This document shows, piece by piece, positions 6,726-33,284 of a stretch of DNA of 64,000 bases; the stretch's first letter is position 1, and each line of letters starts with the position of its first letter. Made by a program: the position numbers and the translations under genes. Under the pieces are notes generated by a model that saw only the letters and a list, made by a program, of their open reading frames with translations, made no database searches and was not told where the DNA came from. This stretch comes from Deltaproteobacteria bacterium (lineage in GTDB: Bacteria > Myxococcota_A > UBA796 > UBA9615): positions 23,553 to 87,552 of the forward strand of contig PBPL01000255.1 in assembly GCA_002724675.1 (NCBI GenBank), written 5' to 3'.

Positions 6726-6744
6726 CACGAACCCGGGAGCCCCC

Positions 6745-7782
<1,038 letters not shown>

Positions 7783-7811
7783 TGGACACCGTGAGGAAAA
7801 GGTAGTGGCGG

Positions 7812-8810
7812 GTGAGTAGCATCAAATCCCACGCGAACGGATCGATCAGCGCCGAGCTGCTCGAGCAGGTTCGAAACCTAGTCGCGCACGCCAAAGCTGT
7901 GGTGCGTGGATCCGGAACGGGGGTCCACCGTTCCCATCGCCTTGGAGGCGGGAGCGAGTTCGCCGAGCACAAGAACTATGGGCCGGGAGACGACCTCCGA
8001 CACGTGGACTGGAAGGTCTTTGGTCGAACAGACCGCTATCTCGTCAAGCAATTCGAGAGCGAGCGCCGCACAGAGGTGCGGCTGGTCCTGGACCGCAGTG
8101 GGTCGATGGCTTTCGGCACGACTGGGAGCCACGAGGCCGCCGCCTGGGGCCCCTGGCCGAGCACCAAGTGGGAAGCCGCCCGCGCCCTCGGCCTCGCTCT
8201 GGCCTTCGTATTTCTTCGCCAGGGCGATCGACTCGGGCTGTCGATTCTCGACGGTGCTCATTCCGCGCCGCTACCGGCTCGGGGGGGCGCCCAACTCATG
8301 CACGAGTTGAGCCACGCAGTGCTTTCGAGCCAACCCACGGGCTCGGCCCGGCTGGGAGACAACCTCCGCAACTTTTCCCCCAGCCGTTCACGACCCCTGG
8401 TGGTGCTCGTCTCTGACCTCATGGCTGAGGACGAGGGCGAAGCTCAGAAGGCTCTGGCCCATCTGCGGGCCCGGGGCTCGGAGGTGTGGCTGGTGCACAT
8501 CGTGGATCCCGCTGAGATCCACTTCCCCTATGAAGAGCCGACGCTCTTTGTGGGGCTCGAAGACCAGCAGAGCCTGGGGCTGAACCCCAGGGAGCTGGCA
8601 GCCAGCTATCGCGCCGAGTTCGCGGCCTTTCTCGACCGTCAGCGCACCCGTTGTCTGCAGGACGGCATCCACTACCTCAGGGTTGTCACCGACGAACCCT
8701 TGGAGGAGGCGCTGGCTGGCTTCCTCAGGGGGTCTGGGAGTGTGCGCGCTGCCCCTAACGGCACAAGCCCGGACCGCCCCCAAAACGCGGCTAAGGACAA
8801 GGTGGGCTAG
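7812..8810 (+). CDS. DUF58 domain protein, the usual MoxR-associated partner
   Basis: Canonical DUF58 signature …HKNYGPGDDLRHVDWKVFGRTDRYLVKQFESE…. It sits immediately downstream of moxR. Confidence 0.85.
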   Translation: MSSIKSHANGSISAELLEQVRNLVAHAKAVVRGSGTGVHRSHRLGGGSEFAEHKNYGPGDDLRHVDWKVFGRTDRYLVKQFESERRTEVRLVLDRSGSMAFGTTGSHEAAAWGPWPSTKWEAARALGLALAFVFLRQGDRLGLSILDGAHSAPLPARGGAQLMHELSHAVLSSQPTGSARLGDNLRNFSPSRSRPLVVLVSDLMAEDEGEAQKALAHLRARGSEVWLVHIVDPAEIHFPYEEPTLFVGLEDQQSLGLNPRELAASYRAEFAAFLDRQRTRCLQDGIHYLRVVTDEPLEEALAGFLRGSGSVRAAPNGTSPDRPQNAAKDKVG

Positions 8811-8812
8811 GA

Positions 8813-10930: not shown

Positions 10931-11718
10931 CACGCCAGAGCCAATTCTCTCGTCGTGGCGTTCTCCAGGCCCTGGCTGCTGCCACGGGCACCGGAACTCT
11001 AGGCTGGAGCGGAGACCTCCTCGCCCTGGGCGATCGAAAGGTTGGGGTGGCGCGCCTCGACCTGCCCGACCTGCCCGATCCGCGACCTGGCGCGCTGACA
11101 GATCTGCTGCGCGAGGTCAGCCACAATAGCTCCATCAGCGCGGAGGTTCGGCCGGCGCTGGTGGACCCAGGATCGGAGGCGCTGTTCGAACATCCGTTCG
11201 TGGTGCTCTCGGGGGATCGGGGGTTCGAGCCCCTGGGGGATCAAGCGCTCGCCAACTTGCGGCTGTACGTGCGCGAGGGTGGACTGCTCTTTGTGGACGA
11301 CGCCACAGGACTCGAGCGCTCGGCGTTCGACGACAGTGTGCGCCGGGAGCTGTCCCGCCTTTTGCCCGGAACCCCACTTCGGCGCATCGGCCGTGACCAC
11401 GCCATCTACCGCTCGTTCTTTCTGATGCGTGGAGTTGCGGGACGCATGGTCGTTCAGCCCTACCTCGAGGGGCTCTGGCTGGGAGACATCACGCCCGTTC
11501 TGTATTCCCGGAACGATCTGTTGGGGGCCGTCTGGCGGTCCTCAAGTGGCGGCTACGCTCTGGAGGTCGTCCCCGGCGGAGAGCGCCAACGCCTCCAGGC
11601 TCGCCGTATGGCCATCAACCTGGTTTTGTTCGCCGTCACCGGCAACTACAAGCGCGACGTCGTGCACGTAAAGACGCTGCTCAAGCGCATGCGACGGCAG
11701 GGGGGCTACGGAGAGTGA
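10927..11718 (+). CDS. Tat-signal exported protein, DUF4159-like with a possible class-I glutamine-amidotransferase-like fold
   Basis: Twin-arginine motif SRRGVLQALAAATG at the N-terminus, with the start ATG at 10927 overlapping the upstream stop. An internal FVVLSGDRGFEP…LYVREGGLLFVDDATG block resembles GATase1/ThuA-like folds. Assignment is by resemblance. Confidence 0.5.
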   Translation: MTRQSQFSRRGVLQALAAATGTGTLGWSGDLLALGDRKVGVARLDLPDLPDPRPGALTDLLREVSHNSSISAEVRPALVDPGSEALFEHPFVVLSGDRGFEPLGDQALANLRLYVREGGLLFVDDATGLERSAFDDSVRRELSRLLPGTPLRRIGRDHAIYRSFFLMRGVAGRMVVQPYLEGLWLGDITPVLYSRNDLLGAVWRSSSGGYALEVVPGGERQRLQARRMAINLVLFAVTGNYKRDVVHVKTLLKRMRRQGGYGE

Positions 11719-14006
11719 ACGGCAACCTCGTCCAGCAGATCTCCTTCACCTGGGATCCGCTGCTCCCCGACCTGTTGTGGGTGCCTTCGGCGCTCGTGGC
11801 GATGGCGATCCTCGCGCTGTCGTTGCGCGCCTCGGTTGGGTTGCCTGCGTGGAAGCGGGGGTTGCTTGTGGGGCTGAGGGCCCTCGCCTTTGCCTTGCTC
11901 GCGGTCATCCTGGCCGGACCTTCTACGCTGCGCACGGAGGGGAGAGAAGTGCGGGACCCCTATGTCGTGTTGATCGACGGCTCCCGCTCCATGGCGGTCG
12001 AAGATCAGGAGGGGACCCGGTCGGGGGCGGTAGCTCGGTGGCTTGCACGCCACGAGGGCTCGTTTCGGACTCTGGCGGAAGAATACGACCTGCGGTTCTT
12101 CGTGGCGGGAGACGAGCTGGCGCCCCTAGCCCTGGACCAGGCCATTCCTCGAGACGCCCTCAGCGGCTCCATTCCCACAAACGGGCAGGGCACGGACCTG
12201 GGTGCAGCGCTGTTCGGCTTGTCCGATGCGCTCGGCGGAACGAGACCGGCGAGCGTCCTGCTCGTCTCCGACGGCGCCGATCGGGCGGCGCTAGGCCGGG
12301 CCTTTTCAGACTCGGGTGCGGAGGGGGTGGAGCAGCTATCAGCGGGGCTCAAGTTCCCCGTCTCTACCTGGATGGTGGGCGACGAGGACGGGCCCCGAGA
12401 TCTGGCGATCACCAACCTAACCGTGCCGCCCTTTGGCTTCGTGCGCCGCCCGCTCAGCCTCCAGCTGGAGGTGACCTCCCGGGGGCTGCCCCAACGCACG
12501 CACGTGGCTACCCTGCGATCCAATGGAGAGGTGGTCGCGACTACCGAGCTGCACTTCGACGAGGATGGAAGGAGCGCCGTGGACTTCGAGGTGAAGCCCG
12601 ATGAGATGGGCTTTCACACCTACGACGTCAGCATCCCTACACCCGAGGGCGATGCAATCCCGGCCAACAACCAGGCCGAGGTGACAGTCAAGGTGATCCG
12701 GGACCGGACCCGGATCCTCCAGGTCACCTCCCGCCCGTCCTGGGACGTGAAGTTCCTTCGAAGGCTGCTCAAGACCGACCCCAACATCGATCTCGTCTCC
12801 TTCTTCATCCTCCGGAACAGCGAGCGAGGTGGGCAGCTCGCCCGCATGGGAAACCTCTCGCTCATCGCCTTTCCTTACGAGGAGCTGTTCACTCAGGACC
12901 TGGAAGGATTTGATCTCGTCATCTTCCAGAATTTCTGGTTTGGCTCGTTCACCCATTACCCAGACACCGAGTTCGTCCGAAACATCAGGGACTATGTGAG
13001 CAGGGGAGGGGCCTTCTTGATGATCGGTGGGGACAACTCGTTCGGGGAGGCCAACTATGGATCCTCGCCCCTCGCAGAGGTGATGCCCACTCAGATCCCA
13101 GATGCGGCATCCATCACCCAGCCGTTTCGGGCGGTGCTGAGCGAGGCCGGGCAGCGCCACCCCGTGACTCGACTGGTCCGCGAGGGCGATCGCAACCTGG
13201 GCCGCTGGGAAGATCTGCCGCTACTCCACGGCTGGAATCCCCTGGGAGCTCCCCAGGAGGGTGGGGTCGTGCTCGCCACAGCTGGTGCAGGCGGCCCGCC
13301 CATCGCCGCAGTGCGCACGGCGGGCAAGGGCCGCACAATGGCCTTCGCCACCGACACCACTTGGCGCTGGGCCATGGCCGGCACCGAAGGACCTGGAGCA
13401 GGTCAGGACCACGCTCTGTTCTGGCGCAACGCCATCCGTTGGCTGATCAAGGACGCGGAGGAAAAACAGGTGCAGTTGGTCTTGGATCGGGAGAACTACC
13501 AACTGGGCGATCCCATGCAGGTGATGGTTCGCGTCCTCCGGGAGGACTACTCCCCGTGGGCCAACGCTCAGGTGGTGGGTCGCGTTGCGCTCCTAGGCGG
13601 CGGCGATGCGACCCCTATCGAAGGAGTCACCGATGCTGATGGTCAATTGACAGTCCTGCTTCCGTCGACCGCCCAGGGCACCGTTGTGGTGGAGGTCGAC
13701 GTTCCGGACGTTCCTGCTCCCTTTGGTCACGCGGAGGCGCGGGCCTCCATCAGCGACCGACAGGGAGAGTTTCTGGACGCTCGAGTCCGCCCGGGGCTCC
13801 TCAAGGCCCTGTCTGAGGCCACCGGCGGCAAGGTGCTGGGGGGGCGGGATCCCGACCCGCGACTCGCGGCTACTGGCGGCGGAAACTCGGTGCTGGCGGT
13901 CGATCGAAAAGTAGAGTCGCTCTGGAATCGATGGTGGTTGCTGGTGGTCTTGGTGTTGCCGCTCGGCGCCGAGTGGGCGACGCGGAGACGGATGGGACTG
14001 CCCTGA
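11715..14006 (+). CDS. Membrane protein with a VWA domain and a C-terminal GATase1/ThuA-like domain (BatB/BatA-related)
   Basis: N-terminal TM helices. VWA MIDAS motif VVLIDGSRSMAVED. A C-terminal block FQNFWFGSFTHYPDTEF…SRGGAFLMIGGDNSFGEANY. A final TM helix (WWLLVVLVLPLGA). The start overlaps the upstream stop. Confidence 0.6.
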   Translation: MNGNLVQQISFTWDPLLPDLLWVPSALVAMAILALSLRASVGLPAWKRGLLVGLRALAFALLAVILAGPSTLRTEGREVRDPYVVLIDGSRSMAVEDQEGTRSGAVARWLARHEGSFRTLAEEYDLRFFVAGDELAPLALDQAIPRDALSGSIPTNGQGTDLGAALFGLSDALGGTRPASVLLVSDGADRAALGRAFSDSGAEGVEQLSAGLKFPVSTWMVGDEDGPRDLAITNLTVPPFGFVRRPLSLQLEVTSRGLPQRTHVATLRSNGEVVATTELHFDEDGRSAVDFEVKPDEMGFHTYDVSIPTPEGDAIPANNQAEVTVKVIRDRTRILQVTSRPSWDVKFLRRLLKTDPNIDLVSFFILRNSERGGQLARMGNLSLIAFPYEELFTQDLEGFDLVIFQNFWFGSFTHYPDTEFVRNIRDYVSRGGAFLMIGGDNSFGEANYGSSPLAEVMPTQIPDAASITQPFRAVLSEAGQRHPVTRLVREGDRNLGRWEDLPLLHGWNPLGAPQEGGVVLATAGAGGPPIAAVRTAGKGRTMAFATDTTWRWAMAGTEGPGAGQDHALFWRNAIRWLIKDAEEKQVQLVLDRENYQLGDPMQVMVRVLREDYSPWANAQVVGRVALLGGGDATPIEGVTDADGQLTVLLPSTAQGTVVVEVDVPDVPAPFGHAEARASISDRQGEFLDARVRPGLLKALSEATGGKVLGGRDPDPRLAATGGGNSVLAVDRKVESLWNRWWLLVVLVLPLGAEWATRRRMGLP

Positions 14007-14107
14007 GCCTGGGGCGCCCACTGTGGGCGCCTCGACTGCGTGGTATAAGCCGCCGTCCCTCGGGACAACCGTTGTCACGCCCCGTCGTCCCCCGGAGCCC
14101 AAGAGTC

Positions 14108-14677
14108 ATGTTGCAGGTCACCGGCGGCTCCCTCCGAGGACGTCGACTGAAGATAGCCCCAGGAGAGAGCATCCGTCCGACCGCGTCTCGGGTGCGAGAA
14201 GCCCTCTTCTCGATCCTGGGGCAACGACTGGACGGCCGAAGAGTGCTCGACTTGTACGCTGGCGCGGGGACTCTTGGCATCGAGGCCGCATCCCGAGGGG
14301 CTGACGACGTCGTCTTTGTGGAGGTGGATGGCAGCCACGTGGAGCTGCTACGCCACAATGCCCGTCTCCTGGACGGCGTCGCCTCTCATCGCATCCTCGG
14401 CCTAGACGTTCAGCGCGCCATCCAGCGACTCCGCAGCGAGGGAGGTGGCTTCGACCTCGTCTTCCTCGACGCGCCCTATGGCAAGGGGCTGAGCACAAAG
14501 ACCCTCGAAGCCCTAGGGGCCACGGGCTACGAGGTGCTGGCTGCTGGAGCAGTCGTCGTGGTCGAGACCGATGCACGAGAAGACCTGCCCGAGCAGGTCG
14601 GGCGATTCCGTGCTGATGACTCCCGCACCTACGGCAAGACAGGACTGACCTTCTACCGAAATGGAGAGACCACCTGA
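14108..14677 (+). CDS. rsmD: 16S rRNA (guanine966-N2)-methyltransferase RsmD
   Basis: SAM-binding motif LDLYAGAGTLGIEAASRGA and the (D/N)PPY-type motif FLDAPYGKG, about 190 aa. An internal ATG at 14108 is chosen over the ORF start at 13931. Confidence 0.8.
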   Translation: MLQVTGGSLRGRRLKIAPGESIRPTASRVREALFSILGQRLDGRRVLDLYAGAGTLGIEAASRGADDVVFVEVDGSHVELLRHNARLLDGVASHRILGLDVQRAIQRLRSEGGGFDLVFLDAPYGKGLSTKTLEALGATGYEVLAAGAVVVVETDAREDLPEQVGRFRADDSRTYGKTGLTFYRNGETT

Positions 14678-21056: not shown

Positions 21057-23567
21057 ATGCCCGACATCCCCAGACGCCGTGACCTGTCCGACCTAATCCA
21101 GGGCCTCATCACCCAAGGACCCACCGCCGACTGCATCACCGCCCACATCGAGGTGGAGCCTCGGGATGCCGTACTGGAGCCCTTTCCCCCGTGGGTGTCA
21201 CCCAAGCTCGAGTCGGCGCTCAAGGCCGAAGGGGTTCAGCAGCTGTACCGCCACCAGCGGCTGGCGGCCGATGCCGCCCGCGCCGGTGAGGATGTGGTCG
21301 TGGTGACGCCCACCGCCTCGGGCAAGACCCTCTGCTACAACCTGCCTGTCCTACAAGAAATCCTGGAGGACACCAGCACACGAGCCTTCTATCTGTTTCC
21401 CACCAAGGCGCTCAGTCAAGACCAGGTCCACGGGCTCCAGCAGACCATCGACCGCCTGGGCGTCCCGGTCCGCACCTACACCTACGACGGGGACACCCCC
21501 GCAGACGCCCGCACGGCCATTCGCAACCGGGGCCACGTGGTGGTCACCAACCCCGACATGCTCCACGCGGGCATCCTGCCCAACCACCCCCGCTGGCGGC
21601 GGGTGCTTCAAGACCTTCGCTACGTCATCGTCGACGAGATGCACACCTACAGCGGGGTCTTCGGAAGCCACGTGGCCAACGTGCTTCGGCGCCTACAGAG
21701 GCTGTGTGAGTTTTATGGCTCACGGCCCCAGTTCATCTGCAGCTCCGCCACCATCGCCAACCCGGGCGAGCATGCCCATCGGCTCTTGGGCCGCGAGGCC
21801 ACCGTCATTGGTGCCGACGACAACGGGGCGCCCGCTGGGCCCAAGGACTTCATTCTGCTCAACCCCCCGGTGGTGAACCGCGAGCTAGGCATTCGCCGCG
21901 GCGTCATCAACCAGAGCCGAAAGGTGGCCACGCCCTTCATAGACCAGGGCCTCCAGACCATCTGTTTCACGGGTTCTCGCCTCCACACCGAGGTCTTGTC
22001 GCGCTACCTACGAGAGGGCTTCGGCAAGAAGGGCAAGGCTGGAGCCATTGCCTCGTATCGAGGGGGCTATCTGCCCGGCCTCAGGCGGGCCATCGAGAAG
22101 GGCCTGCGCGATGGGGACATCACCTGTGTGGTCTCCACCAACGCCCTCGAGCTGGGCATCGACATCGGGCGGCTCGATGTGGCGGTGTTGGCCGGATATC
22201 CCGGATCGGTGGCATCCACCTTTCAGCAAGCCGGGCGGGCAGGCCGCAGCGACAAGCGCTCGCTCACCGTCCTGGTGGCTCGCAACAGCCCCTTGGATCA
22301 GTACGTCATCGAGCACCCCGAGTTCTTGTTCGAGGGGAAGGCAGAGCACGCTCGATCTGATCCCGACAACCTCATGATCTTGATGGCCCACATCAAGTGC
22401 GCGCTGTACGAACTGCCGTTTACGGACGACGAGCATTTTGGCGACGAAGACCTGCGTGAGATGCTCGACTTCTTGGTGGAGGCAGGCTTGGCCAACGAGC
22501 GCGACGGCACCTATCACTGGGCGCAGGAGAGCTTCCCCGCCGATGGGGTGTCGCTGCGATCGGCCGACCCCGAGAACGTGCTCGTCATCGACACCAGCTC
22601 GGGCGACCGGGTCATCGCCGAGACCGATCGCTTGTCCGCCCAGACCATCTTGCACGAGGGCGCCATCTACATGGTGGAGAGCCGTCCCTATCAAGTAGAC
22701 CGCCTCGACTGGGATCAACAGAAGGCCTACGTTCGCTCGCTGGATGTGGACCACTACACCACCGCCATGAGCTACTCGCGGGTCCGAGTGCTCGACCGCT
22801 TCGACGAAGAGGTGCGCGAGCATGGTGGCACCCGAGCGCACGGCGAGGTGCACGTGGCCCGGCGCACCGTGGGCTACAAGAAGATCAAGCTGTATACGTC
22901 CGAGAACTGCGGCTCCGGCGACGTCCACCTGCCCGACATCGAGATGCACACGACCAGCTTTTGGTTGTCCGTGCCCGGGGAAACGTTAGTGCGCGCTGGC
23001 TACCGCGGCATCGACGTGGTGGACGGGCTCTTGGGCCTAGGCAAGGTGCTCAAGGGGCTGGCAGCGCTGCACCTGCTCTGCGACAGCGGCGATCTGGGCA
23101 TGGCCCTCGCCGATCCAGAAGATTGCTGGGTGGCGGGCGTCGACCGGGGTGGATCACGCAGCCTCCGGCCGCTCGATGACAGCCCCCTGGGCGAGGGCAT
23201 CGCGACCCGCCGAGGCCCCCTCGATCCTGGCTCCCTTCAGCTACAGCAGCCCACCTTGTTCGTCTACGACAGCGTCCCTGGGGGGGTGGGGTTTGCGGAG
23301 AAGCTCTATGAGCTCTGCGACGTCCTGCTGACCCAGGCCCGGGAGCGCATCGCCAGCTGCCGCTGCGAGGCCGGCTGCCCCTCGTGCGTGGGGCCCATTG
23401 GCGAAGTAGACGAGGGTGCGCGCGCCGTAGCGCTCGACCTCTGCGACTGGCTCTGCGGGTTCATTGCGGTTCCCCGAGGACCCGAGGCTGCAGCCGACGC
23501 CTTGGCTCGTTGGCGAGGGCCCGAGCCCCAGGCCAGGGCCACCCCAAGTCCTGCGCCGGCTGGTTGA
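21057..23567 (+). CDS. DExH-box helicase with a C-terminal DUF1998 4-Cys domain (MrfA/YprA-like; same architecture as DISARM DrmA)
   Basis: Motif I VVVTPTASGKT, motif II VIVDEMH, motif VI FQQAGRAGR. C-terminal CRCEAGCPSCVGPIGE is a 4-Cys zinc-finger-like motif. Confidence 0.8.
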   Translation: MPDIPRRRDLSDLIQGLITQGPTADCITAHIEVEPRDAVLEPFPPWVSPKLESALKAEGVQQLYRHQRLAADAARAGEDVVVVTPTASGKTLCYNLPVLQEILEDTSTRAFYLFPTKALSQDQVHGLQQTIDRLGVPVRTYTYDGDTPADARTAIRNRGHVVVTNPDMLHAGILPNHPRWRRVLQDLRYVIVDEMHTYSGVFGSHVANVLRRLQRLCEFYGSRPQFICSSATIANPGEHAHRLLGREATVIGADDNGAPAGPKDFILLNPPVVNRELGIRRGVINQSRKVATPFIDQGLQTICFTGSRLHTEVLSRYLREGFGKKGKAGAIASYRGGYLPGLRRAIEKGLRDGDITCVVSTNALELGIDIGRLDVAVLAGYPGSVASTFQQAGRAGRSDKRSLTVLVARNSPLDQYVIEHPEFLFEGKAEHARSDPDNLMILMAHIKCALYELPFTDDEHFGDEDLREMLDFLVEAGLANERDGTYHWAQESFPADGVSLRSADPENVLVIDTSSGDRVIAETDRLSAQTILHEGAIYMVESRPYQVDRLDWDQQKAYVRSLDVDHYTTAMSYSRVRVLDRFDEEVREHGGTRAHGEVHVARRTVGYKKIKLYTSENCGSGDVHLPDIEMHTTSFWLSVPGETLVRAGYRGIDVVDGLLGLGKVLKGLAALHLLCDSGDLGMALADPEDCWVAGVDRGGSRSLRPLDDSPLGEGIATRRGPLDPGSLQLQQPTLFVYDSVPGGVGFAEKLYELCDVLLTQARERIASCRCEAGCPSCVGPIGEVDEGARAVALDLCDWLCGFIAVPRGPEAAADALARWRGPEPQARATPSPAPAG

Positions 23568-23574
23568 GCGCCCC

Positions 23575-25083
23575 ATGGGCAGGCTGCGCGAGCGCCTTCG
23601 ACGCCAGCTGGGCGATCCCGCAAAGCTCCGACCGGGGAGGGGGGCGATGGATCCGTCGATCGACCCCCCAGCAGGAACTGCGGCGCAAGCTGCTCAAGTC
23701 CAGGCCATGGAACAGCCCGCCCGCGCGGCGTGGGTCGGGGTGCCACCGCAAGACGGCTGCTTGCCACCCATCCACAGAGCGGTGCGGCAAGAGAGCCGCG
23801 GAGGCTTCGTGTACGGCGAGGTGCAGCTGCCCCATGCCTGGCAACACGGCGGCCTCCCCCTGGCTGCCGTTGCTCAACTGAGCGGGGACGCTGCTGTCTT
23901 GTTGTCGGGGGACATTGCACTGGCCGACTTCGACCCCAGCCGGGCGCTGTTCTTTGACCTGGAGACGACGGGACTACCGGGACGCTGGGACGATCGGAGT
24001 CACCAGTACCGGGCAGCCCATGGTCGGCGCAACGCCACCGGCTCGGTGCTCGCTTTCTTGGTGGGCACGGTCCGAATTGGTCCGGATGGTGGCGTCACAC
24101 TGCGCCAATACCTGCTCCGGCAGCAGCCCGACGAGCCCGCTGTGCTCGATGCCATTCAGGCCGCACTGGCCGAGGTGGACTTCCTCGTTTCGTTCAACGG
24201 CAAGTCGTTCGATCGCAACATCCTGGCCGATCGCTTCGCCCGAAACCGCATGGACTCGTCCCGGGTCTTGGCGCTGCCCCACCTGGATCTACTGCACCCC
24301 TCCCGCAGACTCTACTCCCAGGTACTGTCCCGCTGTTCCCTGGGCACGCTGGAGACCCATGTGCTGGGCCTGGATCGCCCAGACGGCGAGGTCAGCGGGG
24401 CAGAGGTTCCCATGCTGTGGGACCGCTACCTGGCCACTGGCAAGCCCGGGATCCTGGGTCCGGTTCTCGACCACAACACACTAGACCTCCTGAGTCTGGT
24501 CACCTTGGGCGGTCACCTGGCCGACTGTGTCCGACGCCCAGAAACGACGCTGCCCGAGCCGCAGGCCCTGGCCCAAGCGGCGCGACTCATGCTGCAGCGA
24601 GGCGACGAGCAGCGGGGCGAGCGGCTCCTCAGACGACTCCTGAGCCAGCGGGCGCTTCAGCAAGTCGTCGAGTCCCAGGGTGGCGACCTCCAGGAGAGGC
24701 CTGACACCCAGCCATTCGACCCGGTGATCTACGGCGCGTCGTGGGTGCTCGCCGAGCATCTGCGGCGACAGGCTCGGCACGACGAGGCCCTCCCTGTCTT
24801 GCTCTCCATGTGCGCCGCAGCAGGCCCGTTCGACCTTCGCCCCTGGCGGGCAGCCGCCATCGCCTTGGAGCGACGCCTGGGCCAACCGGGTGAGGCGCTG
24901 GCGCTCGTCGACCGAGCCCTCGCTCAGTGCCCCATCCCCGACAGTTCGAGCGAAGCCCATCAGGACGCATCCGCCCCAGACCACGCCGAGTTGATGCGGC
25001 GCAAGATCCGCCTCAAAAAGCGCTTAGAGACCCTGCCTTCGGCAAAGAAAGCTACGATCGCACCAGCTCCGACGGGCCGCTGA
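23575..25083 (+). CDS. RNase H-like DEDD 3'-5' exonuclease with a C-terminal TPR-like region (MrfB/YprB-like)
   Basis: Exo I motif LFFDLETTGLPG. The C-terminal helical-repeat region is Leu/Ala/Arg-rich. It lies immediately downstream of the helicase. The ATG at 23575 is preferred over the upstream start at 23464, which would overlap the helicase by 100 nt. Confidence 0.6.
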   Translation: MGRLRERLRRQLGDPAKLRPGRGAMDPSIDPPAGTAAQAAQVQAMEQPARAAWVGVPPQDGCLPPIHRAVRQESRGGFVYGEVQLPHAWQHGGLPLAAVAQLSGDAAVLLSGDIALADFDPSRALFFDLETTGLPGRWDDRSHQYRAAHGRRNATGSVLAFLVGTVRIGPDGGVTLRQYLLRQQPDEPAVLDAIQAALAEVDFLVSFNGKSFDRNILADRFARNRMDSSRVLALPHLDLLHPSRRLYSQVLSRCSLGTLETHVLGLDRPDGEVSGAEVPMLWDRYLATGKPGILGPVLDHNTLDLLSLVTLGGHLADCVRRPETTLPEPQALAQAARLMLQRGDEQRGERLLRRLLSQRALQQVVESQGGDLQERPDTQPFDPVIYGASWVLAEHLRRQARHDEALPVLLSMCAAAGPFDLRPWRAAAIALERRLGQPGEALALVDRALAQCPIPDSSSEAHQDASAPDHAELMRRKIRLKKRLETLPSAKKATIAPAPTGR

Positions 25084-25118: not shown

Positions 25119-26399
25119 ATGCCCAAAGTCCTCCCAATCGCGCTGTGTCTTCTGGGGATCTCGCTCCTCGGCTCGGGCTGTCCGGACTGGCGGGACGTAG
25201 CCCGTAATGCGGATGGGGATGGGGATGGGTCGTTCTATCCCGATGACTGCGCGCCAACGAATCCGGAGATCCACCCGGCGGCCTTTGATCCCATCGGTGA
25301 CGGAGTGGACCAGAATTGCGACGGCACCGATGGCGTGGACCGGGATCGTGACGGCTGGGGAGGGGGCTCGGGCGCTGATTGCAACGATGGCGATCCCAGT
25401 GTCCATCCCGACGCCGAGGACCCCGTGGGCGACAACCGGGACCAGAACTGCGATGGAGTGGACGGTGTGGCTGGGGACGTCGTGGGGGACGACGACGTGG
25501 GCGACGACGACACGACCCACAGCGGCGACGACGACGACGATGATGACGACACCACCAGCCCCCCCCATGGCGATGACGACACCGCTGGTGGCGCCGATGA
25601 TGACGACGCTACCGGCCCAGCCAACGATGATGACGACGACGATGTTGGTCCGGATCCGACCCCGTGCCCCTGCGACTTTGGTCAGCTCTGCGTAGAGGGC
25701 TTGTGCCTGTACTCGGACACGTTTGCCATTGGGCTGTTGGAGGGCAGCAACAACCTGGCCACCGACTACCCCTCCACCAACGCGTGTTTCTGGCGGTCCG
25801 AGTACCTCAGCTCCATCACCGCTGTGCAGGGCGACTGCGTGGCGCGATTTCTGCCGGGCAGCCAGCCGGTCGTTCAGTACGTGGCGTCCAGCGCTGGCGA
25901 GGTCACCGTCACCGGAGGCATGACCGATCCCATCGTCTTTGATGCCAGCGGCAGCGCCGAGTGCCTCGACGCCAACGTCACCGATGGCTTGGAGGACCTG
26001 TTCGAGTCGGGCCAGACTCTGACGTTTGTGGGTTCTGGGGGGGCAGACTTCCCCGAGTTCACAGCCAGCCTGCTGGCACCAGCGCCCATCGAAGGGAGCG
26101 CGACGTCGATTGCGCCAGGCAGCGCGGTGGAGATGTCGTGGGACAGCGGTGACTCGGACTATGTGGAGATCACCGTAGCCACCGAGAGCATCACCGGAGG
26201 CGATCGGCATGCCATCGTGTGCCGCACGGGGGACGTGGGCACCTTCCTGGTACCGCCCTCCATGACGATCACTCTCCCCACCGACAATACGGGCTACACC
26301 GTGTCCTTCTCCCGCAATCGGGTCGCGCACCTGGAGTACGAAGACCTGGCCCGAGTGATCGATGTGGTGGTGCAGACCAGCTGGGTGCAGATGCCGTAA
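25119..26399 (+). CDS. Lipoprotein with MopE-type putative metal-binding Cys motifs and a poly-Asp acidic tract
   Basis: Lipobox LLGSGC. Repeats DQNCDGTDGVDRDRDGW and CNDGDPSVHPDAEDPVGDNRDQNCDGVDG. An acidic tract DDDVGDDDTTHSGDDDDDDDDTTSPPHGDDDTAGGADDDDATGPANDDDDDD. Confidence 0.6.
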   Translation: MPKVLPIALCLLGISLLGSGCPDWRDVARNADGDGDGSFYPDDCAPTNPEIHPAAFDPIGDGVDQNCDGTDGVDRDRDGWGGGSGADCNDGDPSVHPDAEDPVGDNRDQNCDGVDGVAGDVVGDDDVGDDDTTHSGDDDDDDDDTTSPPHGDDDTAGGADDDDATGPANDDDDDDVGPDPTPCPCDFGQLCVEGLCLYSDTFAIGLLEGSNNLATDYPSTNACFWRSEYLSSITAVQGDCVARFLPGSQPVVQYVASSAGEVTVTGGMTDPIVFDASGSAECLDANVTDGLEDLFESGQTLTFVGSGGADFPEFTASLLAPAPIEGSATSIAPGSAVEMSWDSGDSDYVEITVATESITGGDRHAIVCRTGDVGTFLVPPSMTITLPTDNTGYTVSFSRNRVAHLEYEDLARVIDVVVQTSWVQMP

Positions 26400-26418
26400 G
26401 GATCGATCCGCAAGCCGC

Positions 26419-29400
26419 TCAGCGGCTGGCAGTCACGGACCAGCTGCCGTCTACGCAGTCGCTGCAGTCCCCCGTGAACTGGATCGAGACGTCGCCAGCC
26501 AGTGCATCGGCACCGGTGAAGCTGCCCGCCAGGGACCAGGTCGCGGTGCAGGCCCCATGGTTCACCAGCCTGGTGCGCTCCACGAGAAAGACATCTGGGC
26601 TGACAAAGCCACCTTCGAGAGTGCCGGGGTGGGCGGTGTGCGATGCCATGGTCAGTTCATAAGCACCCGCGATGACCGCAGGGTCGATGGCGGCATAGGT
26701 GGGTCGGTACGTCGCGTGCAGCTGCTCGACCACCACCCCGACGCTGCCCGAGTCACAGGTGTAGTTCACGAAGGGCGACAGCCTCCAGAGGCCTGCATAG
26801 GCAGGGGGCTCGAAGGGCGAATGGACCAGGTAGGTCCTGCCCGGGTTGCTGTCGGGGAGGTCGCTGTCGTCCTGGTCAGCACCAATCAGCATGGCAGACA
26901 GGCCGTCGCCATTGACGTCGCCGGCCGTCGCGACGGAGGTGCCACTGCGGTCATAGTGGCCTTCCCCGACAAATGCGGCCCCGGCTTCGCTGAGCGAAAA
27001 GGTCCCTCCAGCAAGCAGGTCGCTGCCATAGAACAGGTAGGTCTTGCCGGTCCTGCTGCCCACGTCGTCGTTACCGTTTGCCCCGATGACGACGTCATCC
27101 AATCCGTCACCATCCACGTCGCCCGCGCTCGACACCGAGGTGCCGCTGTAGTCGAACATATTCTCGCCGAGCAGAACGACATCTGCCGAGAGCAGGTCGT
27201 AGTCCGCCGGGAACCCGGTGGTGCGCCCAAAGACCAGGTAGGTCGCTCCACCGCGGTGGTGTGCGGTGGCATCTTCCTCGGCGCCAATGAGTATGTCCGA
27301 GAGACCATCGCCGTTCACGTCGCCGGCCGTCGCCAAGGAATTGCCTGCCGTGGCACCCTGCTGGCCAATTAGGGCGACATCAGCCTCAGACAGAGACATG
27401 CCCCCGCCCAGCCTGGGCATGCTGGTTGCCCCCAGGATGAGGTAGGCCTTGCCGTATTCATCGTCCACATAGTCGGCGGGAGCGCCGATGAGGACATCGG
27501 CCAGCCCGTCGCCGTCGACGTCGCCGGCACCGTCGACAGCCCATCCGGACTCGCTGTACTCATCGCTCCCTGAGATGACCAGGTCCGCATCAGAGGCGTC
27601 CAGAGGAGCGCTGGGCCCGGCGCTCAGCCAGGCCATGACAGAGCTTCCCAGAAACAGGTAGGACCTCCCGGCCTGGTCTTCATCGGCATCACTGCCGGGG
27701 GCCCCGATGAGTAGATCGGCCAACCCGTCGCCGTCGACATCGCCGGCTCCGGCCACAGAGTTGCCAAAGTAGTCGTAGAGTTCCTCACCCAGGATGGTGA
27801 CCGCGGCTTCACTGAGCGGAAACACCCCACCGGCACCAAGCGCACTTCCAAAAAGCAGGTATGCCGACCCGGCGGTGGCAGGAAACGCGTCGTCGTCACC
27901 CGGCGCACCAATCAGAACATCCGAGAGCCCGTCGCCATCGACATCCCCAGCACTTGACACGGAATAGCCGACCTGCCCGTAGGCAACATCATCTCCGATG
28001 AAAATGGCATGGGCGTCACCGAGGTCTTCACTCCACGCAGCGCCGTCCTCTCTACCCAGCACCAGGTAGGCTTTGCCGCCCTCGATCTGATACTCGGAAT
28101 GGTCAGGGGAGCCGATGAGCAGATCGCCCAGGCCATCGCCGTTGACGTCGCCCGCAGCCACTGCGGATTGCCCACTGTCGTCCAGCTCGACCTCTCCGAC
28201 GAACAGGGGCTCGATGAGCGCCAGGGACGTGCCGAGAATGCCGTCGCAGTTGATGTCGCCGTCGACGTTCGGAGTCTCCCAACCCAGGTTGCTGCCCGGG
28301 TAGACGTCTGGGTCGACGTCGTTGCAGTCCTGCTCACTGCCTGGAGCGTTCTGCGCGTAGCCATCGCCGTCCGCGTCCACCCCTTGGGAGCCGTCGCAGT
28401 TGGCGTCCAACTCATCCCAGGGATCGAAGACGCTGAGGTTGATGAGCGGATCGTCGTCGTCGCAGTCCTCACCACCACTGTCCCCCGATGCCCAACCGTC
28501 CCCATCGCTGTCCACGCCATCGATACCATCGCAGTTGGAGTCAATCTCCTCCACGTCGATCAGATCGAGGCTGTCTGGGTTCGGGTGGACCGAAGGGTCG
28601 TCGGGATCACAGTCCCAGTCCGGGTGGGTGGGAGTCGCGTTGTCGGGCCAGCCATCGCCGTCGTCGTCAATGCCGTCAATGCCGTCGCAGTTCTGGTCGA
28701 TGGTGTCTCCGTGCAGGTCGGCCGCGCCCGGGTAGGTATAGAGGCCCAGGGTCCCGTCGTCGCAGTCCAGTGCGCAGCTGGACACCCCGTCCCCATCAAC
28801 ATCTAGGGTCTCGACCGTCCCATCGCTGTCGTCGCAATCCGAACACGACGGGTCGCCGTCGCCGTCGAGATCCTGCTCCTGCCCCGCGTCCGCCCAGGTG
28901 GTCGGGTCGCAGTCGGTGTCCAGGCCGTCGCAGAGCTCAGCGGCATCGGGGCGGACATGGAAGTTGGCGTCGTCGCAGTCCCCATCACAGGCCATGACCT
29001 CGTCGCTGTCGCCATCCAACTCTTGATCAGGAACCAGCCCGTCGCAGTCGTTGTCCAGCCCGTCGCACAGCTCGGGGAAGTTGGCCCCCATGGTGGCACT
29101 CTCATCGTTGCAGTCACCCTCGCAGGGCATGTGACCGTCCTCGTCGGCATCGGTCTCGTACGAGCCAGGCCCACCGTCGCAGTCGTTGTCCTGGCCGTCG
29201 CAGGCCTCGTTACCACCCAGGAAGTTGGCGGAGTCGGCGTCGTCGCAGTCCCCCGCGCACCCCATCATGCCGTCGCCATCGCCGTCCTCTTCGCCGTCCT
29301 CGGCATCGGCCAGCCCGTTGCAGTCGTTGTCTTCGCCGTCGCACAGCTCGGCCGCCCCCGGGGTATTGCTGGCATCGGAATCGTCGCAGTCGACACAGCT

Positions 29401-30879
29401 GAGTGCGCCGTCGCCATCGTCATCGACCTCGCCTGCTGCATCGGCAGAGGTGTCGTCATCGCAGTCGTTGTCTTGCCCGTCGCACTGCTCGAGGTTGCCG
29501 GGAGCGTTGGCCGGATCGGCGTCGTCGCAGTCGCCCCCGCAGGTCAACACCCCGTCCTGGTCGGCATCCAGCTCGCCCCCGTCGGCATCGGCCAGGCCAT
29601 TGCAGTCGTTGTCCTGGCCATCGCAGACTTCCGAGGCGCCCGGCGTGTTGGCCACATCGGCGTCGTTGCAGTCGGCGCAGCTGAACGAGCCGTCGCCATC
29701 GCCGTCGATCTCGCCCAGCGCATCGGCAAATGTGCCGTCGTCGCAGTCGTTGTCCAGCCCATCGCAGAGCTCGACACCGCCTGGCCGATTGGCAGCGCTG
29801 CTGTCGTCGCAATCCAAACAGCTGAGCGCCCCGTCGCCGTCCGTGTCCTGCTCACCGGCAGCATCCGCGTCGGCCAGGCCGTTGCAGTCGTTGTCCTGGC
29901 CATCGCAGAGCTCGACCGCCCCGACCCAGTTGGCCGGGTCAGCATCGTCACAGTCCCCCGCGCAGACGGCCACCCCGTCGCCATCGAGGTCGTCCTCGCC
30001 GCCCTCGAAGTCGGCCAGGCCATTGCAATCGTTGTCCTGGCCATCGCAGAGTTCGACTGCGCCCGGCGTGTTGGCGACGTCCCCGTCGTTGCAATCCGAG
30101 CACGAAGGGGCGCCGTCGCCGTCGATGTCGTCTTCGCCCTCTTCGAAGTCGGCCAACTCGTTGCAGTCGTTGTCGAGGCCATCGCACAGTTCCACCGCAC
30201 CCGGAAAGCGTGAGGGATTGGCGTCGTCGCAGTCGAGGCAGGCCACCACACCGTCGCCGTCCCCATCCGCTTCATCAGGAGTGCCATCCAGGCCCGAGCC
30301 CAACGCCCCGTCGCAATCGGTATCGAGCCCATCACAGAGTTCGACCGCGCCGGGCAGGACGCTCGCATCGCGGTCGTCGCAGTCGCTGCTGTCGGCCACG
30401 TAGCCCGGTGGCACGACGCAGGCTACGACGCTCTGGGCCGGGTCGCCGGCACCGTCGCCATCGGCATCGGGGTGCCAGCTTGCGGCGTCCGCTGAGCTTT
30501 CGTCGTCGGTCAGGCCGTCGCAGTCGTTGTCGGCCTGGTCGCAGATCTCGACAGCGCCCGGATAGATGGCGGAGTTGTTGTCGTTGCAGTCGACAACCAG
30601 ACCCTCCCCGTCGAGGCTCGCGTGGCCATCCTGGTCTTGGTCCACGCCATCGACCCCGTCGCAGTTGTTGTCGACGCCCGACGCATCCACCGGATCCTCA
30701 GAGCCCGGGTAGACGGCCGGATCGTCGGGAACACAGTCGTCCTGGTCGAGGACGCCGTCGCCGTCAAAATCAAAGAGGTTGCTCCCACCACTGGCCCCGC
30801 AGGAACCGAGGAGCATTGTCAGACAGCACTGCAGAGCCGCAGAGAGAATGGCGGCGCGACGACGGTCTACGGTGTGCAC
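26419..30879 (-). CDS. Giant secreted lipoprotein (1486 aa) with about 12 MopE-type Cys-rich metal-binding repeats, thrombospondin-type-3-like Asp motifs and a 7-repeat FG-GAP (integrin-alpha-like beta-propeller) module
   Basis: Lipobox LLGSCG. Repeated unit DCxDxDxxxxPGAxELCDGxDNDCxG, about 12 copies. Seven copies of GDV(N/D)GDGLxDxLIGA (FG-GAP). A Cys-containing C-terminal domain. Confidence 0.75.
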   Translation of the reverse strand: MHTVDRRRAAILSAALQCCLTMLLGSCGASGGSNLFDFDGDGVLDQDDCVPDDPAVYPGSEDPVDASGVDNNCDGVDGVDQDQDGHASLDGEGLVVDCNDNNSAIYPGAVEICDQADNDCDGLTDDESSADAASWHPDADGDGAGDPAQSVVACVVPPGYVADSSDCDDRDASVLPGAVELCDGLDTDCDGALGSGLDGTPDEADGDGDGVVACLDCDDANPSRFPGAVELCDGLDNDCNELADFEEGEDDIDGDGAPSCSDCNDGDVANTPGAVELCDGQDNDCNGLADFEGGEDDLDGDGVAVCAGDCDDADPANWVGAVELCDGQDNDCNGLADADAAGEQDTDGDGALSCLDCDDSSAANRPGGVELCDGLDNDCDDGTFADALGEIDGDGDGSFSCADCNDADVANTPGASEVCDGQDNDCNGLADADGGELDADQDGVLTCGGDCDDADPANAPGNLEQCDGQDNDCDDDTSADAAGEVDDDGDGALSCVDCDDSDASNTPGAAELCDGEDNDCNGLADAEDGEEDGDGDGMMGCAGDCDDADSANFLGGNEACDGQDNDCDGGPGSYETDADEDGHMPCEGDCNDESATMGANFPELCDGLDNDCDGLVPDQELDGDSDEVMACDGDCDDANFHVRPDAAELCDGLDTDCDPTTWADAGQEQDLDGDGDPSCSDCDDSDGTVETLDVDGDGVSSCALDCDDGTLGLYTYPGAADLHGDTIDQNCDGIDGIDDDGDGWPDNATPTHPDWDCDPDDPSVHPNPDSLDLIDVEEIDSNCDGIDGVDSDGDGWASGDSGGEDCDDDDPLINLSVFDPWDELDANCDGSQGVDADGDGYAQNAPGSEQDCNDVDPDVYPGSNLGWETPNVDGDINCDGILGTSLALIEPLFVGEVELDDSGQSAVAAGDVNGDGLGDLLIGSPDHSEYQIEGGKAYLVLGREDGAAWSEDLGDAHAIFIGDDVAYGQVGYSVSSAGDVDGDGLSDVLIGAPGDDDAFPATAGSAYLLFGSALGAGGVFPLSEAAVTILGEELYDYFGNSVAGAGDVDGDGLADLLIGAPGSDADEDQAGRSYLFLGSSVMAWLSAGPSAPLDASDADLVISGSDEYSESGWAVDGAGDVDGDGLADVLIGAPADYVDDEYGKAYLILGATSMPRLGGGMSLSEADVALIGQQGATAGNSLATAGDVNGDGLSDILIGAEEDATAHHRGGATYLVFGRTTGFPADYDLLSADVVLLGENMFDYSGTSVSSAGDVDGDGLDDVVIGANGNDDVGSRTGKTYLFYGSDLLAGGTFSLSEAGAAFVGEGHYDRSGTSVATAGDVNGDGLSAMLIGADQDDSDLPDSNPGRTYLVHSPFEPPAYAGLWRLSPFVNYTCDSGSVGVVVEQLHATYRPTYAAIDPAVIAGAYELTMASHTAHPGTLEGGFVSPDVFLVERTRLVNHGACTATWSLAGSFTGADALAGDVSIQFTGDCSDCVDGSWSVTASR
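28900..30610. repeat. Tandem, imperfect coding repeats (about 130–150 nt period) encoding the MopE-type modules
   Basis: Recurrent nucleotide strings such as gtcgttgtcctggccatcgcagagctcgac(c/t)gc and ccattgcagtcgttgtc repeat at roughly regular spacing on the + strand. Confidence 0.7.
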
Positions 30880-31544: not shown

Positions 31545-33284
31545 TCAACCCCAGCCAGGCCCGCGCTGGCCCGAGCCGTACTTGGGCGGCACGCGTCGCC
31601 TGGGATCGTCGGGGGTGGTCACCACGTACAGGATCCAGCCGTAGCCACCCTCTGCAATGGGCGGAGTCTGATCCACCGGGGTGATGGTCACCGGGCCAGC
31701 CTGCACCGCCTCCCCTTCGGCGAGAAAGGGAGCGATGGTCAGGGACTCGGTCCAGTCCTCCTCAAACCACACGAGGTAGTGAATCCCTTCGTCCCGCAAG
31801 AAGCGTCCCACCCGGTCCAGGTAGAGGCGCTGCACCCGCTCGGGTCGGTCGTCCCAGGTGACGGTGTCGGGGCGAGTCAGGATCTGCTGCTCGAGATCGG
31901 ATCCCGGGCCCGCGAGCTTCATCTCTTCTTCGGGCGATACCCGAACCCGGTCGGGCAGTAGCCACCAGGAGTAGACACGCAGAGGCCCCGGCTGTCGCTT
32001 CAGCCAGACCTCGGGGATGCTCGACACCAAGACGCCCGTGCCCGGCTCCAGGCTCTGCTCCATCCAGCGGGACAGCTCTAGCTGGGGGCGATACCAGCGC
32101 TCGGCGCGCTCCATCTGGTAGCCGGCCTCGGCCGCGAACTGGGGGAGGGGAGCCAGGAGGACGACGAGGAACACAGCGGGCCGGAGCACATGGGGGCCGT
32201 GACGCAGCCGACGGTCCACGACGTTCCAGCCGCCAGCCGCCAGCAACGCCACAAAGGGAATGGCCGGCAGCAGCCACACCCAGTAGAGGTTGTGGTTGGG
32301 GTCGTGGTGAGCCAGAAAGCCCTCGAACAGCCAGCCTCCCAAGGCAAAGAAGGCATAGACCACCACTGCCCGCGCGCCCGGTCGGCCGTGGCCGCGCCAT
32401 ACGGCGAGCGACCCTAGAGCCGCCAGCCCGAGCACCACCCACCCCAGCTTGCGCGGGAGTGTCCAGGTCAGGAGGTCCCAAGACGTGCCGAGCCCCTGGG
32501 TGGCCCAGGCCAAGAGATCGACCTGATCGGCGCCGTGCACATCGGGGGCCAGATTGACCCCAAACGGACCGAGGAAGAAGACAGTGCCCCAGCAGCGATG
32601 GAGATCCTGCAGGTCGAACTCGACACCGAGGCAGCGCTCCTGAACCAGGCTGATATAGGCCTGCCAGCCGATGACCACCCCCAGCAAGAGCCCGAGAGGC
32701 ACGGCCAGTGTTCGGAGCCGGTGCCCCTGGTCGCGGATCCAAGCCCACAAGGCGGGGCCATAGAACAAGAAGAAGCCTTCCATCCGCACGAGAAAGGCCG
32801 CGGCCGTCAGTCCAAAGGCCCGGTCCCGAGAGCCCCAGATCAGCAGAGCCATGCCCAAGAAGGCCAGGGAGACGAACACCGGAGATCGCAGCGTCGAGGA
32901 CCCGTAGAGCGCCATCTCGGGCTGGCACACTAGCCACAGACCCACCAGCCAACCTGTAGCGGGGCTAAACAGCTTGCGCGCCAACAGGGCAGCCACAGCC
33001 ACATTGACGGAAGAGAACAAGAGAGTCATGCCCAGGGCGGAGGCCCTCGCATCCGACTCCAGCAGCCGGGCCAGGGCACCCAAGCTGTACCAGCCGGGCA
33101 TGTGGGTGGAGCGGAACCAGGTAAATCGGGAGTCCAAGACCTCCTGAATCATCATGAGGTTGCCGTAGTCCCCCTCTTCCCAGCCGTAGTAGCGGGCAGA
33201 GAGCACGAGACGCACCAGCGCCGCCACGGCAAGAAGGACCAGAAACTGGATGAGGGCGCGGTGCCGCTCGGAGAGGCTGACCAC
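31545..33284 (-). CDS. Multi-pass membrane protein, GT-C-fold glycosyltransferase-like (PMT/ArnT/DUF2079-like), with a C-terminal soluble domain
   Basis: About 10 hydrophobic helices in the first 400 aa. A hydrophilic C-terminal roughly 170 aa. Assignment is by architecture only. Confidence 0.45.
   Translation of the reverse strand: MVSLSERHRALIQFLVLLAVAALVRLVLSARYYGWEEGDYGNLMMIQEVLDSRFTWFRSTHMPGWYSLGALARLLESDARASALGMTLLFSSVNVAVAALLARKLFSPATGWLVGLWLVCQPEMALYGSSTLRSPVFVSLAFLGMALLIWGSRDRAFGLTAAAFLVRMEGFFLFYGPALWAWIRDQGHRLRTLAVPLGLLLGVVIGWQAYISLVQERCLGVEFDLQDLHRCWGTVFFLGPFGVNLAPDVHGADQVDLLAWATQGLGTSWDLLTWTLPRKLGWVVLGLAALGSLAVWRGHGRPGARAVVVYAFFALGGWLFEGFLAHHDPNHNLYWVWLLPAIPFVALLAAGGWNVVDRRLRHGPHVLRPAVFLVVLLAPLPQFAAEAGYQMERAERWYRPQLELSRWMEQSLEPGTGVLVSSIPEVWLKRQPGPLRVYSWWLLPDRVRVSPEEEMKLAGPGSDLEQQILTRPDTVTWDDRPERVQRLYLDRVGRFLRDEGIHYLVWFEEDWTESLTIAPFLAEGEAVQAGPVTITPVDQTPPIAEGGYGWILYVVTTPDDPRRRVPPKYGSGQRGPGWG

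Follow-up and report, generated by a model that had tools for sequence, protein, structure and literature searches.

A mosaic gene for a predicted lipoprotein with 18 MopE-type modules and an integrin-like propeller in an uncultured marine bacterium

Introduction

The Pfam family PF11617 carries the name Cu-binding_MopE, and a gene built largely of matches to it raises the question of whether its product captures metal or has some other role at the cell surface. One such gene lies next to a smaller one in a stretch of 64,000 nucleotides (nt) from a bacterium labelled "Deltaproteobacteria bacterium" (assembly GCA_002724675.1, contig PBPL01000255.1, positions 23,553 to 87,552); this whole stretch is called the window below. 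A first-pass annotation of the window described the two genes as a convergent pair of paralogous lipoproteins, the larger one combining metal-binding units with a propeller.

26419..30879 (-): large gene, 1486 amino acids (aa), GTG start; lipoprotein signal, 18 MopE-type modules, seven-bladed FG-GAP propeller and C-terminal beta domain
25119..26399 (+): small gene, 426 aa, counted from the ATG at 25119

The reading preferred here, with a probability of roughly 0.6, is that the large gene encodes an exported, lipid-anchored envelope protein, most likely surface-exposed, in which a disulfide-bonded stalk that probably binds Ca2+ carries what would be an adhesin or receptor.

The gene pair and its sequence support

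Both open reading frames were recovered where the first-pass annotation had placed them. Their stop codons are 19 nt apart and, because the genes are convergent, they are not co-transcribed. The large frame is open throughout, which answers the concern that assembly collapse in the repeats might have broken it; collapse is in any case unlikely, since the DNA repeats of the gene, which recur every 141 and 282 nt, share no more than 67-77% identity. The same single gene is found on a Tara Oceans contig from the Joint Genome Institute (JGI; L002), which was deposited separately and shows 99.98% identity over 5.4 kb. Both proteins are also matched in length and 90%-identity cluster on a 92.6-kb GenBank contig of a metagenome-assembled genome (MAG) labelled "Deltaproteobacteria bacterium" (CL928_19310 and CL928_19305), where the 1486-aa protein MBN96193.1 shares the cluster of the large protein; this contig may be the window's own source, and is then weaker as independent support. 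Partial copies of the large gene occur in a UBA MAG and on a TARA_034 scaffold. A promoter scan found no sigma-70-like promoter, and the two terminator-like matches from a terminator scan are no more than expected by chance.

The stalk of the large protein

28240..30774 (-): stalk of 18 consecutive Cys/Asp-rich modules (aa 36-880), delimited by regular expression, alignment A1 and hmmsearch with the protein's own unit profile
28903-30651 (-): 12 canonical 47-aa, four-Cys units (aa 77-659), delimited by regular expression and alignment A1

The PF11617 match of the large protein is strong (E=3e-97, 318.9 bits against a gathering score of 27 bits, 13 stretches). About 12 MopE-type units had been predicted, and 12 canonical ones are present; a profile made from these finds 18 modules in a row between aa 36 and 880, the remaining six being degenerate two-Cys variants. 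All 12 canonical units share a set of potential ligand positions, E(-6), D(-3), D-[NT]-D and [DN](+2), which corresponds to E..CDGxD[NT]DC[DN]. There are 37 DxDxDG-type motifs in the protein. It has 357 Asp and Glu residues against 20 Lys and Arg, giving a pI of about 4, while the 850 residues of the repeat region include only seven His (an eighth is in the signal peptide). Besides the Cys predicted to be lipidated, the mature protein has 64 Cys, an even number and thus consistent with all of them being disulfide-bonded. The Cys content, acidity and low pI are together the mark of an extracytoplasmic protein.

The spacing of the Asp and Asn residues in the stalk units is that of the Ca2+ ligands of teneurin-4 (D840, D843, N844, D845, and D847), whose C-rich domain binds three Ca2+ with a coordination resembling that of thrombospondin type 3 repeats (PMC9058538). 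The C-rich domain of teneurins has also been aligned to PF11617 (PMC3278476). This resemblance suggests that the metal of the stalk is probably structural Ca2+ rather than copper. The thrombospondin type 3 families themselves (Pfam TSP_3, which the first-pass annotation had listed for a scan, and TSP3_bac) gave no match even at E<=10, PF11617 being the only family found at aa 28-660.

The propeller

26848..28239 (-): seven-bladed FG-GAP, integrin-alpha-like beta-propeller (aa 881-1344), with a DxDxDGxxD loop in each blade

The prediction of seven FG-GAP repeats folded as an integrin-alpha-like propeller was borne out by profile, motif and fold. Pfam reports FG-GAP in six stretches (E=9e-25, 86.6 bits against a cutoff of 22.1), and seven GDV(D/N)GDGLxDxxIG loops begin at aa 910, 978, 1046, 1119, 1186, 1253, and 1320, spaced about 68 aa apart. 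The fold is seven-bladed and superposable on integrin alpha. The Ca2+-type motif DxDxDGxxD occurs in all seven blades, each of which is predicted to bind Ca2+. Neither a beta subunit nor an I-domain was seen among the neighbouring genes scanned, no window-wide search having been made.

The C-terminal domain

26422..26847 (-): C-terminal domain (aa 1345-1486), beta-rich, four Cys; undescribed family (alignment A6)

The last 125 aa or so of the large protein form a domain whose family is undescribed and nearly always found at the C-terminus. A profile of the last 142 aa recovers 145 representative clusters (50% identity) at E<=1e-3 among 1.84 billion proteins, and in 69 of the 76 near-full copies (91%) the domain ends no more than 5 aa from the C-terminus of the protein. 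About half of the copies follow MopE modules, and the smallest members of the family consist of a lipobox, two or three MopE units and the terminal domain only. Over about 115-125 aa the family shares the motifs Y-x-G-x-W, Y-x-C, QPG, C-x-E-T-Y, G-x-F-T, and C-x-D-C, and its members often end in T-[AG]-T-R; 34 of the 69 terminal copies have Arg as their last residue, typically within T-A/G-T-R.

The domain has no credible Pfam or NCBIfam match and no significant sequence match in the PDB. Weak matches of alignment A6 to complement-control repeats, retinol-binding protein 2, and hemophilin (E 0.003-0.85) were treated as chance. A known type of C-terminal sorting tag was rejected, as no MYXO-CTERM, T9SS, or PEP-CTERM model matches, and so was a polymorphic toxin, as there is no toxin domain. 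The domain may be a binding head or a sorting element. A calycin-like barrel, suggested by G-x-W near the start, a terminal Arg and about eight predicted strands, is only a thought.

Signal peptides and lipoboxes

30799..30879 (-): signal peptide and lipobox of the large protein (aa 1-27, LLGS-C27), read from the sequence; Cys kept in genes A and B of the sister-lineage contig L001
25119-25181 (+): lipobox of the small protein (C21), read from the sequence

Each N-terminus opens with a positively charged n-region, followed by a hydrophobic stretch and then, in lipobox context, a Cys (…TMLLGS-C27 in the large protein, …SLLGSG-C21 in the small one), and both MHTVDRRRAAILSAALQCCLTMLLGS-C27 and MPKVLPIALCLLGISLLGSG-C21 match a PROSITE-style lipobox pattern. 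The lipobox Cys is kept in a sister lineage, as ALAS-C in gene B (P0002) and as LLAS-C upstream of the miscalled start of gene A (P0003), and it is present in all seven members of the small-protein family. The lipoboxes noted in the first-pass annotation are thus upheld by pattern and conservation, and both proteins are predicted lipoproteins, with putative lipidation and export.

Two database entries begin downstream of these signals. The JGI call of the identical protein (P0001; L002 780) starts at Met22 and therefore loses the signal peptide and lipobox context; gene A of L001 is likewise called too short, its LLAS-C lipobox lying upstream of the called start.

Mosaic history of the large gene

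Two old tandem paralogues have fused to give the large gene, one supplying its 5' 680 codons and the other its 3' 800. A syntenic contig of the sister lineage from a Cariaco-type sample (L001) has the same flanks and, at 4482-14122, two tandem genes, A (P0003, 1808 aa) and B (P0002, 1373 aa). Residues 32-538 of the large protein are 97% identical to A, at both the aa and nt levels, while residues 682-1486 are 82-91% identical to B at the aa level. Between these parts lies a zone that resembles neither.

28837..29265 (-): junction zone (aa 539-681), divergent from both A and B by sliding identity and three-way alignment; synonymous divergence (dS) 0.67-0.90

Joining A[1-690] to B[575-1373] gives about 1489 aa against the 1486 observed, so a single deletion between tandem paralogues accounts for the gene; A and B share only about 40-60% identity, which makes the fused gene the derived form. 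An exact-pattern scan for the junction patch had no match in a collection of metagenome contigs that lacks the sample of L002, where the pattern does occur. A scan of metagenome contig proteins with the junction region found generic MopE proteins, the best at 50% identity.

Compared with L001, the A part of the large gene has a Nei-Gojobori dS of 0.09 and the B part one of 0.22-0.29. For six flanking genes, encoding TilS, a 579-aa protein, an RNHCP protein, the small lipoprotein (1.25), an exonuclease, and a helicase, dS is 0.73-1.43. High identity to L001 sets in just behind the lipobox and tails off close to the stop codon. Since dS of the large-gene segments is far below that of the flanks, the large gene, and not its neighbours, appears to have been exchanged recently between the Tara and Cariaco-type lineages. 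Such a gene-specific exchange would be the simplest reading, with codon bias and strain-chimeric assembly as weaker alternatives.

The small protein

25206-25457 (+): two two-Cys MopE-variant modules (aa 30-113), PF11617 twice
aa 114-180 (+): Asp-rich linker of the small protein
25659-26396 (+): orphan 245-aa beta domain with eight invariant Cys (aa 181-426), without Pfam or PDB match

The small protein also matches PF11617, in two stretches (E=4.7e-10, 40 bits). The claim that the two proteins share an N-terminal module held up in a BLASTP comparison (45% identity over 83 aa, E=2e-13). The further claim that they are paralogues did not, as the similarity is confined to about 80 aa of repeat modules and the C-terminal domains are unrelated, with no significant match in a profile search of one against the other. 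The C-terminal domain of the small protein has no Pfam, NCBIfam, or PDB match, and its AlphaFold2 model, built on an alignment of seven sequences, has a pLDDT (predicted local distance difference test) score of 46.5 and is unusable. An NCBIfam scan gave no family for either protein.

The small-protein family has seven members (P0121-P0127), with a lipobox, an acidic poly-Asp tether and the 245-aa domain with its eight invariant Cys. Only the members from the window lineage and the sister lineage have MopE modules, and a search of genome contigs recovered only distant relatives. Adjacency to the large gene and the shared module are kept in the sister lineage (L001, L005-L007). Homologues of the small protein's C-terminal domain elsewhere (P0123-P0127, L008-L013) mostly have no MopE/FG-GAP neighbour, and P0080, which outside the sister lineage is the closest homologue to match the large protein over its full length, lacks a small-protein partner. 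The pairing is limited to one close sister lineage, and the small gene is a neighbour rather than an obligate partner.

A 15-nt tandem repeat, GACGACGTGGGCGAC, is present in 2.4 copies at 25476-25511 (+), inside the part of the small gene that encodes the Asp-rich linker; it could make the tether variable in length. The domain family is also represented at L003 8001-9014 and L004 8001-9020, and two distant members are near lgt genes, which encode prolipoprotein diacylglyceryl transferase.

Commonness and genomic setting

The combination of MopE-type units with a propeller had been called unusual. It is common: PF11617 and PF01839 both occur in 34 of the 120 best hits of the large protein, and by regular expression both motif types are found in 42 of these 120, with the same domain order in 28 of the 42 and a lipobox-like N-terminus in 25 of the 42. 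More than 6,650 proteins match the large protein in a database search at E<=1e-10.

The neighbouring genes encode an MrfA-like helicase, an exonuclease of the RNase_H_2 family, an RNHCP protein, the 579-aa membrane protein, TilS, and FtsH. An operon link with them was rejected, as they are housekeeping genes. The FtsH protein groups with MAGs labelled Deltaproteobacteria or Myxococcota. On the plus strand at 21057-25083 are a helicase with DEAD, Helicase_C, WHD_HRQ1, and MZB domains and then an RNase_H_2-superfamily protein with TPR; these two are conserved in the sister lineage, and we take them to be an MrfA/MrfB-like DNA-repair pair. The 579-aa protein (31545-33284, minus strand), between RNHCP and TilS, is hydrophobic, apparently a membrane protein without a Pfam match, and 93% identical in protein sequence to its orthologue in the sister lineage. 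Further away on the plus strand, at 2026-14006 and 47856-52684, are a Bat-like cluster (DUF4175, BatA/VWA, and GATase1-like) and two adjacent genes for Ser/Thr protein kinases, presumably compatible with a Myxococcota-like genome.

Proposed function

If the large protein is an adhesin or receptor, processing by signal peptidase II would leave a lipid anchor on Cys27. About 850 residues would then fold into 18 small modules, each pinned by disulfides and by Ca2+ held on Asp, Asn, and Glu ligands, which together would make a long and extremely acidic stalk. Ca2+ is abundant in seawater. The stalk would present the seven-bladed, integrin-alpha-like propeller, with a predicted Ca2+ loop per blade, together with the terminal beta domain of about 125 aa, and these two would be the candidate ligand-binding parts. 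The small gene would encode a different lipoprotein, in which an orphan Cys-containing beta domain sits on an acidic tether and which may have gained two stalk modules in this lineage. Of this picture, the reading frames, domains, propeller fold, mosaic structure and dS contrast are established by the analysis, and export, lipidation, disulfides, Ca2+ binding, surface exposure and adhesion are inferred.

Several points weigh against this proposal. The assignment of Ca2+ to the stalk is drawn from motif resemblance, and other families of Ca2+ repeats are, like TSP_3, undetected there at E<=10. In a search of the PDB with the unit profile the sole match is to residues 4-43 of MopE*, a segment absent from the MopE* crystal, so that the module is without a solved structure; a literature search on the PF11617 family name found no study of bacterial PF11617 arrays. 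The large gene has a weak ribosome-binding site and the small-protein lipobox has G at -3, neither of which is textbook, and the flanking housekeeping genes give no hint of ligand or function. The low dS of the large gene might in part reflect codon bias in repeats rich in Asp, Gly, and Cys; against this, dS reaches 0.67-0.90 in the junction patch, whose composition is no different.

Alternative explanations

Copper is the explanation that the family name invites, and the first-pass annotation proposed that the Cys-rich units capture copper or another transition metal at the cell surface. The strong PF11617 match and the family name favour this, as does a report that immobilized metal affinity chromatography suggests weak, micromolar Cu(II) binding by MopE* to which its first 24 residues, overlapping the motif, contribute (PMC3423442). 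However, the high-affinity Cu(I) site of MopE* is formed by His132, His203, and kynurenine-130, and the first 46 residues are unseen in the crystal (PMC3423442). The unit profile reaches only residues 4-43 (2VOV, E=3e-5), off the Cu(I) site, and in PDB searches with the whole protein and the unit profile no part of the query aligns to the His132/His203/Trp130 region of the MopE/CorA beta domain with its His-His-Trp(kynurenine) site, the domain that is missing here. The PF11617 model has itself been described as spanning a small part of MopE/CorA and lacking specificity (PMC6189053). The stalk has few His and no Met/His clusters, the even Cys count of the mature protein and the acidic positions conserved among the units suggest disulfides together with a hard cation, the organism is by context not a methanotroph, and no copper-homeostasis genes were found in the flanks of the gene pair, where 20 of the larger open reading frames were scanned. 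Copper binding by the large protein is very unlikely, and the copper label is probably a misnomer. An artefact of assembly, in which the single 1486-aa gene arose when tandem paralogues were collapsed or joined, or when two strains were mixed into a chimera, would explain why the sister lineage has two genes where the window has one, and why a tract 97% identical lies within flanks 66-89% identical, as a strain chimera might; contigs of the sister lineage also often break inside the repeats. It is nonetheless extremely improbable. The repeats are dissimilar, the longest exact match between A and B is 32 nt, the frame is open, and the junction patch is distinct rather than a switch between known alleles. 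The Tara contig has the same structure, the 92.6-kb MAG contig has a protein of the same length and cluster (with the reservation about its origin made above), and fragments are found in two more assemblies, although all of these assemblies may share reads.

The other alternatives concern what the locus is for. The two convergent genes might form a functional module, for example a receptor and co-receptor, which would account for their shared N-terminal modules. Both products are predicted lipoproteins, and adjacency and module are conserved together in the sister lineage; yet most distant small-protein relatives are without a MopE/FG-GAP neighbour, P0080 is without a partner, and the small gene, at a dS of 1.25, has a history decoupled from that of the large gene, at 0.09-0.29, so the module is quite improbable. 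A polymorphic receptor for recognition of kin or prey, following the logic of TraA with a rigid Cys-rich stalk, a variable head and horizontally exchanged alleles, is somewhat less so, and still unlikely. The Cys-rich tandem repeats of Myxococcus TraA have been proposed as a stalk presenting a recognition domain (PMC3325183). In the window, the affiliation of the host with Myxococcota or "Deltaproteobacteria", the two tandem paralogues kept in the sister lineage, and a mosaic gene with segment dS 5-10 times below the flanks, a sign of recent exchange, all fit such a receptor. On the other side, Pfam and NCBIfam scans at E<=0.01 detected no PA14, TIGR04201 repeat, or MYXO-CTERM tag, the C-terminus (...SWSVTASR) has no hydrophobic tail, and the anchor sits at the other end of the protein. 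Exchange has also involved the parts that are most conserved, not those that vary most (protein identity in the propeller is 84%), and the recombination signal has other explanations. A broader version of this idea, which we regard as doubtful, would make the large gene a surface-recognition locus that recombines and is exchanged horizontally among uncultured marine bacteria of the Myxococcota-like kind, with tandem paralogues fused and reshuffled, segments sweeping through lineages, and the terminal domain serving as a new ligand-binding head or sorting signal.

Significance

The PF11617 family name derives from a 40-residue segment of MopE outside the copper site and invites wrong copper annotation; judging from this case, the conserved chemistry of the modules would be of a Ca2+ and disulfide stalk type. 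This matters because few building blocks are commoner than PF11617 arrays in the large secreted proteins of environmental bacteria, Myxococcota-like ones included. If a stalk with an integrin-like head is the true arrangement, such proteins would be the bacterial equivalents of matrix and adhesion proteins in eukaryotes, as well as candidates for attachment to particles, prey, and other cells in the ocean. The large protein joins a large annotated class, and its mosaic history and unnamed terminal domain are its only mildly novel points, neither of them surprising for a surface protein.

Comparison with known systems

MopE/CorA, from which the family takes its name, is surface-associated and Ca2+-stabilised (PMC3423442, PMC3912023). 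It has the module once, in a two-Cys form that spans residues 4-43 of MopE*; there the module is a single N-terminal appendage, whereas in the large protein it makes up the bulk of the sequence, and the Cu(I)-binding beta domain with its His/His/kynurenine site is missing. The likeness to the C-rich domain of teneurins and to thrombospondin type 3 repeats lies in the CxDGxDNDxDGLxD core of the stalk units. The Cys framework differs, with six Cys in 38 aa in teneurins and four per 47 aa in the stalk, and teneurin has one C-rich copy while the large protein has 18 in tandem.

In integrins three or four of the propeller blades bind Ca2+, whereas a Ca2+ loop is predicted in all seven blades of the large protein. 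Its propeller is not followed by calf domains or a transmembrane helix, and its putative lipid anchor is N-terminal. TraA resembles the large protein in having a Cys-rich tandem-repeat stalk that presents a binding domain on the surface of a myxobacterial relative (PMC3325183), and differs in its repeat family (TIGR04201), its PA14 head, and its C-terminal MYXO-CTERM anchor, which gives it the opposite polarity.

The nearest comparison is with the other proteins that have PF11617 arrays, variously called "MopE-related protein" or "putative metal-binding motif-containing protein", which come mostly from Myxococcota and other marine or sediment MAGs and many of which have FG-GAP. They share with the large protein an N-terminal signal or lipobox, a long PF11617 array and an FG-GAP propeller; what sets the large protein apart is its origin by fusion of two tandem paralogues and its terminal domain, the latter present in few propeller-bearing relatives (5 of the 240 proteins fetched). 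The closest of these outside the sister lineage, P0080 and P0111, are 38-39% identical to it over 98-99% of the length and share the C-terminal domain as well.

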